From: Eledone cirrhosa
Taxonomy: Eukaryota
Assembly: GCA_964016885.1 (NCBI GenBank)
Contig: OZ024754.1
Span: 13,516,001-13,580,000, forward strand
Direction of reading: 5' to 3'
Length of the DNA: 64,000 nucleotides
Part shown: piece by piece, positions 2,016 through 12,176 of the stretch
Layout: each line of letters starts with the position of its first letter
Position numbering within the stretch: position 1 is the stretch's first letter
Notes under the pieces: generated by a model
Told to the model about the DNA's origin: nothing
The model's input: only the letters and a program-made list of their open reading frames with translations
Databases searched by the model: none
Position numbers and translations under genes: made by a program

Positions 2016-2071
<56 letters not shown>

Positions 2072-2264
2072 GATAAATCTACCAAGAGTTTACGGTAGTG
2101 TCCAATCCGTATGAAGAACTCAATGTATTCCGGATATCATGGAAAGAAGAGATGTAATGAAAAATCACTTTCGGTGAAAGATAAACGGTATACAGAGTCA
2201 AGATAAAATATTAAACAAATAATGAATAAACAATGAAACAGTTCCTTATATTAAACAAAAAAAG

Positions 2265-2418
2265 TTCATTATTTAACGATCGTTTCTAGGATATATATGT
2301 GTTAGAATTGGCATGCATATTCAACAGATCTATGTACAAAATTATACAAAATTATACAAACTATCAAGATTAAATATACATACCAACACATATATACGCC
2401 GTCTTCAGAAATAATGAA
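2265..2418 (-). ncRNA. Type I hammerhead ribozyme (copy in the inverted arm)
   Basis: Reverse complement of 11942-12095. Confidence 0.78.
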
Positions 2419-3045
2419 ATATATTTATTGATAATAACAACAATTCAAAATTTCAGGTCCGTTTGGGAACAAAATTGACCAATGAAAATACAAAAGGTTT
2501 AATGCAGTTCAGTGTGTGTATATACATGTAACTACCCTTACACATATTTTACAAAAATGTATGCACAACTTGTATACGCATACCAAAAGGATGGATGCAA
2601 ATACAAAATTTCAAGGTTAATGTCTCTGTAAGTTTATAATGCACAGATAAGATGCGTATAGACACATAAATATGAAATAAGTGTATACACATATTCACAT
2701 ACTCACACATATCCGTACAATCACACACACACGCGCGTATATGCATAAACATACACATAACTACGAACATACAAACACACACACACCCCCACTCACATAT
2801 ATATATGTGGATATAAAATCCTAAGCACATGGATATTAATTCACTCACATAAACACTGGCACACACATTTAGATCAAGATACAGAAATTAGGTGGGAGGG
2901 GGGGAGAGGTCAGTATTCAACGGTTTGGGCAGACTGCTTAATATAGATGTATCTATAAACTAAGAAAATAAAAAATAATAAATAATAAATAAACATTAAA
3001 AAAGAAAGAAAAGAAAAAGAAAAAAGAAAAAAGAAATATATCAAG

Positions 3046-3107
<62 letters not shown>

Positions 3108-3243
3108 CATACACATATATACACATATATATATATATATATACACACATACAAACACATACATACATATACACACATCCACACTTAGAACATACATACA
3201 CACACATATATAAACATATACATATACACACATACATATAAAT

Positions 3244-3302
<59 letters not shown>

Positions 3303-3617
3303 TACACACATACATACACATATAATCACACATACTATATAGACACACATATATATACACACATACACGCACATATACATACACTTACATACTTATATAC
3401 ATACAGATATACACATACATACCTATATATACACACAAATACATACAGACATACATACATACATACAGACAAATACTTACGCATCTATATATCGGTATAT
3501 ACATACAAACACCACTACACTCTCACACAACTCAGACATACAAAGAAAAAGGTATATACCTATACACATATATATATACAAATAGAGAAACATATACATA
3601 TATATATATATATATAT

Positions 3618-3656
<39 letters not shown>

Positions 3657-3852
3657 CACATATACACACATACACATACATACACATACATACATGTACA
3701 CACACATAGATATATATACACATACACACATACACACATACATATATAGTCATACACACACATACACCTACACGAACATACACATACACATATATAAAGA
3801 TATATATACACACACACACACACATACACACACACACATATATATAAAATAA

Positions 3853-3895
<43 letters not shown>

Positions 3896-4475
3896 TATAC
3901 ATACATATACATACACACATACATAGACATATATGTACATACATACACATACATAGATACATACACACACATACATACATATATATATACACACATAGAC
4001 ATATACATACATACACACACAACATACATACACACATATATACTCATACATAGAATTAGATATATATTCATACATACATACGCATTTACATATACTCATA
4101 TATACAAATACATACGCATTCATATATGCGTATATACATAGAAACACCACTACACCCTCACCCAACTCAGACATACAAAGAAAAAGGCATATACATATAC
4201 ATATATACACGCATTAATAGAGATATATATACACATATACATATATATATATATATACACATACACTTATATATATATACCCACACACACATACAACCAT
4301 AAATACACATACAAACACCCACATATACATATATATACACATATATATATATACACACACATAAAAACAGACATGCACATATATATTTTTTTACACACAT
4401 ATATACACATATATATACATATACACACCCTCACATATACATACATACACATAAGTTATATTATAATAATAAATA

Positions 4476-4526
<51 letters not shown>

Positions 4527-4553
4527 CGAATATAGACACATATACACACATAG

Positions 4554-4586
<33 letters not shown>

Positions 4587-4783
4587 CATATACACACACA
4601 CATATACACACTCACATATATATGTGTGTGCACACACACATATATACACATACACACATATACACATAAACACATATATGTGTATACATGCACACACACA
4701 CATATATCCACATAGATACGAAGATAGACATATAAATAGAGAGACATACATATATATACCGACACACATATACATACATACAT

Positions 4784-4842
<59 letters not shown>

Positions 4843-8191: not shown

Positions 8192-8739
8192 TAACATTAT
8201 TTTAGAAATTAATTTAATTTAAATGTTAGTTAACCTATAAATTTAATTTAATTAAAATTCTATTACAGATGAGAATATAAAATATTATGTAATCATAAAT
8301 TGTGAAAAACCTTTAAATATTACTAATATATACTTAGTAATTTAATTTATAGATTAATTTTAATTTATTTAAACCTTTTATTATAATTCTTTTACAGATA
8401 AAATATAACAAAATATCGTGTATCCAATGACAGAGAAATAATTTTTAGTATTATAGACCTAATTAATATACATTTTAGAAATATATTTATAATTTGGTTT
8501 TAATTTTAGTCAACCTAAAAATTTAATTTAATTGGCTTAAAATTAGTATCCTTATACAGACGAATTGCAGAATGTCATGTAATCATAGAATGAGATGTAT
8601 TTTAGATATATACCTAGTTAATATATTCTTTGCAATTTTTGAAAAAATATGTATATGTATATGTGTATGTGTATGTGTATGTGTGTGTATATGTGTATAT
8701 ATGTATATATATATGTATATATATGTATATATATATGTG

Positions 8740-8770
<31 letters not shown>

Positions 8771-9515
8771 TAATTTTGATTTCTATTTGCATATAATTAT
8801 ATTCTGCTATTGATAAAATACAATAACTGTTTTATTTATTATATACCTAATTAACATATACTATAGAAATAAATATATAATTTTTAATTTAGTTAACCTA
8901 TAATTTATATTCTACTACCGATGTAATACTTTATTTGTTTTTTCCCTATTACTAAATTCATTTCCTAATATTGATACCATAACGTTATTAACTTTAATTT
9001 AGTTATACTATAATTAATACTCTACTACTATTTAACTTCAAAATTCTGCTTCAAATATTATAAACCTAACTAATTTACACCTTAGAAATCAATATGTTAA
9101 CTATCTTTAGTTTAGTTAACATATAATTAATGGTATACTTATTTATTTTGAAATGCATAAATTTTGCCTTATTTCTTGTTTATTGTATTTCCTAACACTG
9201 AAACTATGTAAAAACATACATTGGATCCAGATACGGATAATATTCTATGTTTCTTGAAACATATATTTACTATAATCCCCTTCTCCAACCCCCCCCCCCT
9301 TTCCCCCATACTATTATCATCTGTGTTTGTAAGCGTGTATGTATGAATATATATGTAGGTAGGTGTATATATGTTTGGGTATTTATATCTGAATATAAAA
9401 ATACATATATGCGCATGCAAATAAGAATGTAAGATTGTGTGTGTATATATATGTGTGTATGTATGTGTATATGTGTATATATGCATGTGTATATATATGT
9501 GTATGTGTATGTGTG

Positions 9516-9574
<59 letters not shown>

Positions 9575-9827
9575 ATGTATGTATGTATATGTGTGTCTGT
9601 ATATATATGTATGTCTCTCTATTTATATGTCTATCTTCGTATCTATGTGGATATATGTGTGTGTGTGCATGTATACACATATATGTGTTTATGTGTATAT
9701 GTGTGTATGTGTATATATGTGTGTGTGCACACACATATATATGTGAGTGTGTATATGTGTGTGTGTATATGTATGTGTATATATATATATATATATATAT
9801 CTATGTGTGTATATGTGTCTATATTCG

Positions 9828-9880
<53 letters not shown>

Positions 9881-10460
9881 TATTTATTATTATAATATAA
9901 CTTATGTGTATGTATGTATATGTGAGGGTGTGTATATGTATATATATGTGTATATATGTGTGTAAAAAAATATATATGTGCATGTCTGTTTTTATGTGTG
10001 TGTGTATATATATATGTGTATATATATGTATATGTGGGTGTTTGTATGTGTATTTATGGTTGTATGTGTGTGTGGGTATATATATATAAGTGTATGTGTA
10101 TATATATATATATATGTATATGTGTATATATATCTCTATTAATGCGTGTATATATGTATATGTATATGCCTTTTTCTTTGTATGTCTGAGTTGGGTGAGG
10201 GTGTAGTGGTGTTTCTATGTATATACGCATATATGAATGCGTATGTATTTGTATATATGAGTATATGTAAATGCGTATGTATGTATGAATATATATCTAA
10301 TTCTATGTATGAGTATATATGTGTGTATGTATGTTGTGTGTGTATGTATGTATATGTCTATGTGTGTATATATATATGTATGTATGTGTGTGTATGTATC
10401 TATGTATGTGTATGTATGTACATATATGTCTATGTATGTGTGTATGTATATGTATGTATA

Positions 10461-10503
<43 letters not shown>

Positions 10504-10701
10504 TTATTTTATATATATGTGTGTGTGTGTATGTGTGTGTGTGTGTGTGTATATATATCTTTATATATGTGTATGTGTATGTTCGTGTAGGTGTATGTGT
10601 GTGTATGACTATATATGTATGTGTGTATGTGTGTATGTGTATATATATCTATGTGTGTGTACATGTATGTATGTGTATGTATGTGTATGTGTGTATATGT
10701 G

Positions 10702-10736
<35 letters not shown>

Positions 10737-11051
10737 ATATATATATATATATATATGTATATGTTTCTCTATTTGTATATATATATGTGTATAGGTATAT
10801 ACCTTTTTCTTTGTATGTCTGAGTTGTGTGAGAGTGTAGTGGTGTTTGTATGTATATACCGATATATAGATGCGTAAGTATTTGTCTGTATGTATGTATG
10901 TATGTCTGTATGTATTTGTGTGTATATATAGGTATGTATGTGTATATCTGTATGTATATAAGTATGTAAGTGTATGTATATGTGCGTGTATGTGTGTATA
11001 TATATGTGTGTCTATATAGTATGTGTGATTATATGTGTATGTATGTGTGTA

Positions 11052-11136
<85 letters not shown>

Positions 11137-11267
11137 ATTTATATGTATGTGTGTATATGATATGTTTATATATGTGTGTGTATGTATGTTCTAAGTGTGG
11201 ATGTGTGTATATATATGTATGTGTTTGTATGTGTGTATATATATATATATATATGTGTATATATGTG

Positions 11268-11315
<48 letters not shown>

Positions 11316-11941
11316 CTTGATATATTTCTTTTTTCTTTTTTCTTTTTCTTTTCTTTCCTTTTTAATGTTTATTTATTATTTATTATTTTTTATTTTCTTA
11401 GTTTATAGATACATCTATATTAAGCAGTCTGCCCAAACCGTTGAATACTGACCTCTCCCCCCTCCCACCTAATTTCTGTATCTTGATCTAAATGTGTGTG
11501 CCAGTGTTTATGTGAGTGAATTAATATCCATGTGCTTAGGATTTTATATCCACATATATATATGTGAGTGGGGGTGTGTGTGTGTTTGTATGTTCGTAGT
11601 TATGTGTATGTTTATGCATATACGCGCGTGTGTGTGTGATTGTACGGATATGTGTGAGTATGTGAATATGTGTATACACTTATTTCATATTTATGTGTCT
11701 ATACGCATCTTATCTGTGCATTATAAACTTACAGAGACATTAACCTTGAAATTTTGTATTTGCATCCATCCTTTTGGTATGCGTATACAAGTTGTGCATA
11801 CATTTTTGTAAAATATGTGTAAGGGTAGTTACATGTATATACACACACTGAACTGCATTAAACCTTTTGTATTTTCATTGGTCAATTTTGTTCCCAAACG
11901 GACCTGAAATTTTGAATTGTTGTTATTATCAATAAATATAT

Positions 11942-12095
11942 TTCATTATTTCTGAAGACGGCGTATATATGTGTTGGTATGTATATTTAATCTTGATAGT
12001 TTGTATAATTTTGTATAATTTTGTACATAGATCTGTTGAATATGCATGCCAATTCTAACACATATATATCCTAGAAACGATCGTTAAATAATGAA
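11942..12095 (+). ncRNA. Type I hammerhead ribozyme with ~115-nt extended stem II
   Basis: Stem I TTCATTATTT/AAATAATGAA (10 bp), CTGAAGA 11952-11958, long stem II (TATATATGTGTTGG.../...CTAACACATATATA and GGTATGTATATTTAA/TTGAATATGCATGCC), GAAA 12074-12077, palindromic stem III ACGATCGT, GUU site. Confidence 0.8.
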
Positions 12096-12176
12096 CTTTT
12101 TTTGTTTAATATAAGGAACTGTTTCATTGTTTATTCATTATTTGTTTAATATTTTATATATATATATATACATACA

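Follow-up and report, generated by a model that had tools for sequence, protein, structure and literature searches.

How does a genome come to carry a retrotransposon as a 10-kb palindrome, and which element is it? The question is raised by a stretch of 64,000 nt from Eledone cirrhosa (assembly GCA_964016885.1, contig OZ024754.1, positions 13,516,001 to 13,580,000 of the forward strand; below, the window), in which two arms of about 4.6 kb face each other around a short spacer. We find that the palindrome is built from two overlapping, 5′-truncated copies of what is almost certainly a Hydra-type Penelope-like element (PLE). We consider it very probable that the insertion is real and was produced by PLE machinery. 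As to the route, we lean towards a single event in which a now dead insertion was made from two target-primed complementary DNAs (cDNAs).

Geometry of the palindrome

The arms, 4,579 nt (2203–6781) and 4,589 nt (7569–12157) long, are near-perfect reverse complements, as the initial annotation had them (Table 1). Aligned over 4,550 columns, they differ by 12 substitutions and by 11 gap blocks, most of which reflect simple repeats of unequal length; seven of the substitutions lie in the 2,539 columns outside simple repeats and five in the 2,011 columns inside. The arms are thus 99.7% identical by substitutions and 98.2% by BLAST with gap columns counted (E 0.0). Two substitutions alter codons (Ala/Val and Val/Ile). 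By eye, the arm differences have no A-to-G bias, and so carry no trace of editing that predates reverse transcription.

The two arms overlap in content, and both 3′ ends of the element point outward into (TA)n. The 787-nt spacer, annotated as coding, is so: its breakpoints (6781/7569) are exact and its reading frame runs on without a break into the right arm. The direct copy alone is 5,376 nt. The duplicated unit had been described as the GIY-YIG region plus long 3′ sequence, which agrees with the content of the inverted copy. At the central junction there is neither (TA)n nor a remnant of tail or target. It had also been proposed that both ends lie in (TA)n; this is true of the right arm, which meets the repeat directly, but the left arm is followed first by 134 unique bases, missing from the right arm, and only then by (TA)n.

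The arms are, as claimed, far longer than the published PLE inverted copies compared, about 4.6 kb against about 1 kb in Penelope-13_HM. The surprise expressed at the layout itself was overstated: an inverted copy with coding sequence at the 5′ end of a PLE is described as frequent and is listed for one Hydra-clade family (PMC8557442). That family, Penelope-13_HM, likewise has a 5′-truncated inverted copy (nt 1–966) and a hammerhead on each strand (PMC8557442). Penelope elements of the rotifer Adineta vaga carry an inverted pseudo-long terminal repeat (pLTR) with a one-sided tail, but there the inverted pLTRs span ~200 nt and the tails 31 nt (PMC3846280). The arrangement is therefore already known, and the palindrome is ordinary PLE behaviour on a larger scale; what is unusual is the anatomy of the element, with its long 3′ region, 115-nt helix II and long tail.

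Table 1 Features of the palindrome and its flanks (positions in the window)
Feature	Position	Strand	Basis
Left (TA)n target repeat	2010–2067		
One-sided extension of the inverted copy, 134 nt; likely PLE tail, of presumed element origin	2069–2202	−	
Inverted copy with deeper 5′ truncation: linker end, GIY-YIG domain and whole 3′ region	2203–6781	−	
Mirror hammerhead motif, core at 2408, U16.1 at 2276	2265–2418	−	descriptor scan
Head-to-head junction	6781–6782		
Unmirrored spacer, 787 nt, belonging to the longer (direct) copy	6782–7568	+	
5′-truncated open reading frame: L-YRDD, end of reverse transcriptase palm and thumb, Asn/Lys/Thr-rich insert, CxCX5C linker, GIY-YIG endonuclease, CxxC..E, N..CxH, stop	6782–8191	+	
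Right arm, the 3′ part of the direct copy	7569–12157	+	
Degenerate serial duplications (~70% identical) of the reading frame end and AT-rich 3′ sequence	8138–9150	+	
(TG/TA)n-rich zone, 78% alternating purine–pyrimidine runs, unique anchors recurring 633 nt apart	9301–11310	+	
Type I hammerhead motif	11942–12095	+	descriptor scan
Right (TA)n target repeat	12155–12224		

Clade of the element

The catalytic reverse transcriptase (RT) motif YRDD stands, after L, at residue 1 of the open reading frame (ORF); because the ORF starts only there, the copy in the palindrome is dead. In an AlphaFold model of the ORF (mean pLDDT 78.8), residues 345–448 align to I-TevI (Z 8.7, root-mean-square deviation 2.3, 89 residues aligned) and the four best rows are all GIY-YIG-type nucleases, while residues 1–129 give a weak match to a group II intron RT (Z 4.3). 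From the positions of these two folds the RT precedes the endonuclease; a disordered Asn/Lys/Thr-rich insert spans approximately residues 136–226. The sequence carries CNCRNKVNC (the CxCX5C linker), CRLCSQE (CxxC beside the conserved E) and LNKRQELIISCNH (CxH beside the conserved N). With an RT remnant, a GIY-YIG domain and a two-copy layout, the annotation of the locus as a PLE with an inverted 5′-truncated copy is borne out.

Its assignment to the Naiads is not. Naiads are described with the endonuclease N-terminal to the RT, a CX2-5CxxC finger and a CCHH motif, and without canonical hammerheads (PMC8557442). In the present ORF the GIY-YIG domain follows YRDD and is itself followed by the stop; the CX2-5CxxC finger and an endonuclease CCHH are lacking, and between GIY and YIG there is no internal Cys pair save one Cys-Ser stretch, which lies outside the CCHH pattern. 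Naiads also have a CxC domain, a DKA motif and an insertion in the fingers, features of a region that truncation has removed from the ORF and in which homologues show a DKT-type motif. What the palindrome does share with Naiads is (TA)n targets, 5′ truncation, inverted copies and tails (PMC8557442). The Hydra clade, by comparison, has a C-terminal endonuclease, the CxCX5C linker, and CxxC and CxH by the conserved E and N; CCHH is absent, RWK and DKT motifs and hammerheads are present, and targets are (TA)n (PMC8557442). Here we find RT and C-terminal GIY-YIG in one ORF, CxCX5C, CxxC and CxH without CCHH, a hammerhead motif near the 3′ end and insertion in (TA)n, each of which is a likeness to that clade. 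A difference is length: the 21 published consensus sequences compared run from 1,398 to 3,045 nt (PMC8557442), against 5,376 nt for our truncated copy.

Homologous proteins agree with this placement. Their invariant Cys/His positions match the Hydra pattern; among the first 53, many of them partial, CxCX5C is found in 34, CxxC in 42, CxH in 36 and a DKT-type motif in 17, the region corresponding to the last being truncated away in the ORF. Full-length homologues have both RWK and DKT, lost from the truncated ORF, and by eye resemble the supplementary Hydra alignments of PMC8557442. A divergent RT4 and fingers free of an insertion, which also belong to the Hydra pattern, fall in the part of the RT that this copy has lost. 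The linker from thumb to WFNPP is 119 residues in the ORF and 22–32 in 56 of the 63 proteins measured; its expansion recalls the Asn-rich inserts of rotifer Penelope elements, which in A. vaga keep the frame (PMC3846280). In a quick tree of 51 rows picked from 206 proteins, all of them homologues and without reference PLE clades (no Naiad, Neptune or Poseidon rows), the ORF groups weakly (SH-aLRT 83) with long-linker proteins, one of them from Argonauta hians.

Several results weigh against the Hydra assignment. Pfam gave no match for the ORF (nor for four full-length homologues), and Foldseek with the ORF model returned nothing at E ≤ 0.001, only weak GIY-YIG rows; the clade is assigned on motifs and not on an RT phylogeny. 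A PDB sequence search using the homologue alignment gave one chance match and nothing significant, and a search for longer homologues of the ORF found none. In a search of read runs with segment 6400–8650, 21 runs were listed, 17 of which hold part of the segment and six at least half of its words. These six carry three organism labels and come from two studies, one run having only 88 million letters, which suggests that the segment belongs to a multi-copy family. No RNA run was among those listed.

The 3′ region and its hammerhead motif

Between the stop codon and the hammerhead motif lie 3,761 nt, made up of ~1 kb of duplications that begin in the end of the ORF and 2 kb of TG/TA repeats. 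For comparison we took the best 80 of 494 related metagenomic loci, which form 67 clusters. The hammerhead descriptor is positive in 39 of these (34 clusters), where the same distance is −15 to 515 nt and the helix II insert is 11–25 nt, against 115 nt in the palindrome. Many of the 41 negative loci end soon past the stop and several have more than 1.5 kb downstream; these misses, together with short-read contigs unable to show a 3.8-kb repeat-rich spacer, bias upward the outlier status of the long 3′ region. Four segments of the region have no copy outside the element in the window or the related loci. Because its internal duplications are only ~70% identical and the arms 99.7%, the 3′ region would be older than the insertion and the source RNA would already have borne it; this would explain why the arms are as long as 4.6 kb. 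Candidate splice motifs for a retained intron were seen by eye and are not decisive. Pen1_Av of A. vaga also has a long spacer ahead of its 3′ pLTR, but the spacers in that species are 0.9–1.5 kb of captured host DNA (PMC3846280); here the region displays internal duplications and expanded microsatellites instead.

The hammerhead expected in each arm was found as a predicted motif, with cores at 11952 (plus strand) and, in mirror image, at 2408 (minus strand); a single transcript of the palindrome holds just one of the two in sense. The plus-strand motif has a 10-bp helix I, the core CUGAAGA, GAAA at 12074 and a palindromic helix III loop, with predicted cleavage after 12085 (triplet GUU), and it lies 72 nt from the end of the arm. 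CUGANGA occurs just once in the 3′ region, and none of 500 dinucleotide shuffles yielded a motif of this kind, although a helix I of only 4 bp was accepted. The helix II insert folds at −40.5 kcal/mol in sense and −18.4 kcal/mol on the opposite strand, with six and one G-U pairs, respectively, a strand asymmetry that points to selection acting on the RNA. Folded freely, the region reaches −46.9 and absorbs some of the core; with the hammerhead imposed, the value is −43.8. PLE hammerheads are reported to cleave poorly on their own (PMC4209133).

Rfam gave no match at the gathering score and no hammerhead in the 150 of 193 rows listed at E ≤ 10, where the only matches were to microRNAs and were driven by microsatellites. 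The core with its three helices is complete, and a 115-nt helix II would lie beyond the reach of published descriptors. The hammerhead search of Craig et al. allowed spacers of 7–17 nt, and eight ‘half-core’ cases were recorded there at 35–50 nt (PMC8557442); PLE hammerheads with a long helix II may for this reason be under-counted by standard scans such as these, which bears on claims that a ribozyme is absent. The literature searched describes neither a multi-kb 3′ region in a Hydra PLE nor a helix II of this length; Repbase, Dfam, subscription papers and bioRxiv supplements lay outside the search and may hold one.

Other hammerhead-like motifs occur in the window. Just left of the palindrome, a head-to-head pair lies between (TA)n runs at 1740–1943 (cores at 1804, minus, and 1878, plus); a single related motif is found in 46440–46515 (at 46507, minus), and ~596–660 holds a fragment of the repeat that carries the pair.

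Origin of the palindrome and its surroundings

We propose, and hold somewhat likelier than its negation, that protein supplied in trans from an intact copy elsewhere nicked a (TA)n target on both strands in one integration event, the ORF at this locus starting only at YRDD. Each nicked strand would have primed its own cDNA from the 3′ end of the element, with starts at two sites 134 nt apart leaving the one-sided tail; one cDNA would have halted at 6782 and the other 787 nt sooner, and the two ends would then have been joined head to head, almost bluntly. We favour two target-primed cDNAs because purified PLE protein in vitro cuts and extends both target strands, with a dimer predicted, and begins reverse transcription at two sites by which the tail is delimited (PMC11167929). 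The near-blunt join is suggested by the junction itself, which has no hairpin or usable microhomology. A Gly stands two residues before YRDD in all 39 homologues with YRDD, and the palindrome reads TCT at that position; if the family had this conserved Gly, microhomology would be at most 1 nt.

The same anatomy is seen twice more in the window, at 39364–40504, with a 54-nt tail (40451–40504) on the inverted copy, and at 46552–47327, with a 140-nt tail (47188–47327) on the longer copy. Among the related loci, an antisense ORF piece lies head to head at the truncation in two (L054 and L057), reaching the contig end, and a third (L026) has an inverted piece of the 3′ end. In the first two, Hydra-type loci, the piece sits right at the 5′ truncation and the contigs (L054:1–1641, L057:1–1692) end inside the arm; in L054 it extends farther upstream in the ORF than does the direct copy.

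Some observations count against this account. The extension is single-copy in the window and does not occur in the 80 related loci, and by eye it encodes no recognisable Hydra N-terminus; it could for these reasons be host DNA, and we infer an origin in the element solely from its position and the two parallels in the window. Published PLE tails are only 30–40 nt. A target-site duplication cannot be read within (TA)n, the in vitro work concerns a Poseidon-clade element rather than a Hydra one, the 12 arm substitutions cannot tell two templates from the ageing of one, and junction, arms and tail are known from one assembly alone.

In the alternative that keeps to the same element and event, the 3′ end of the long cDNA would fold back, prime itself ~787 nt back and recopy, one tail being lost at endonuclease resolution. 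Self-priming is the published reading of the palindromes at PLE inverted junctions (PMC3846280), and the tail has been attributed to resolution by the endonuclease (PMC8557442); moreover, the shorter arm must lie wholly inside the longer copy, as it does here. Against this, the junction shows no palindrome and microhomology of 1 nt or less, and a cDNA primed at the right-hand target would reach (TA)n and flank rather than a tail, so that an extra step is needed; we hold fold-back to be unlikely, though it is the main rival. The 4.6-kb arm, clean junction and one-sided tail make the locus a test case between a two-cDNA and a fold-back origin of PLE inversions.

Two separate events, in which a second family copy landed on the 5′ end of an earlier one, or replication or repair later produced an inverted duplication, would accommodate the seven differences in 2,539 non-simple columns and the preference of the PLE endonuclease for AT-rich DNA, its own sequence included (PMC11167929). 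Such a history is hard to reconcile with a junction free of (TA)n, tail or target remnant, with a duplicated unit that stops exactly at the 3′ end of the element, and with the identical layout of two other elements in the window, and we judge it improbable. Least of all do we credit an assembly artefact, be it a long read made chimeric by fold-back or the mistaken joining of two family copies that belong to different loci. Assemblies are known to have trouble with long inverted repeats and with PLE insertions (PMC8557442), and the locus comes from one assembly alone; but a fold-back read would mirror the flank, whereas the match ends at 2203/12157 and the outer sequences differ. The left arm, too, holds 134 nt absent from the right, substitutions fall in unique sequence, including the two that change codons, and smaller versions of the layout are present in the window.

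Whichever the route, a read-through RNA, if made, would pair over ~4.5 kb, and such loci, where transcribed, would be sources of long double-stranded RNA. Both copies of the palindrome lack their 5′ ends, and an ORF scan of the window, assessed by eye, gave only transposon-like frames. Rearranged Penelope copies of Drosophila virilis likewise contain long inverted repeats, and in transformed D. melanogaster small interfering RNAs map to the inverted regions of Penelope copies; the element there is of another clade, and its expression was measured (PMC3681739). More speculatively, and with considerable doubt, one branch of the Hydra PLEs, with octopods as its probable hosts, might move as a ~7-kb RNA that bears a tail of 134 nt, a 3′ region of 3.8 kb laden with microsatellites and a hammerhead that is active with a helix II grown to 115 nt, and might routinely land as multi-kb palindromes that are major substrates of ADAR and Dicer; hammerheads of this kind would explain some of the ‘half-core’ or ‘missing’ PLE ribozymes.

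The two smaller palindromes merit description in their own right. The element at 39364–40504 is a second PLE, on the minus strand, with a CxxC-type GIY-YIG fragment at 39808–40140 (Pfam E 4e-4), inverted arms at 39364–39692 and 40133–40450 (92%) and a one-sided extension of 54 nt; (TA)n stands at either end. At 46514–47327, the inverted arms 46552–46800 and 46945–47193 (95%), with a 140-nt one-sided extension, each hold a hammerhead-like motif with a 47-nt helix II insert, a GUC site and a 4-bp helix I; beside them, at 46514–46538, the 3′ end occurs a third time as a short copy.

The remainder of the window is rich in repeats. A 200-nt palindrome (95%) resembling a miniature inverted-repeat transposable element, with a (TA)n run at its centre, lies at 54722–54925. 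By eye we recognise a broken RTE-like non-LTR (long terminal repeat) retrotransposon copy at 28562–30523 and a long two-ORF non-LTR element with a 947-residue RT frame at 32842–38402. About 3 kb at 13220–16200 consists of the triplet repeat (GGT)n/(CAC)n, present in both orientations, and a 43-nt satellite of at least 80 copies runs from 60215 to 64000 and continues past the window end. A short interspersed repeat family of 100–200 nt is present in many copies and both orientations (16232–16605, 24531, 28378, 30666–31987, 49412, 50899, 52014 and 57498).

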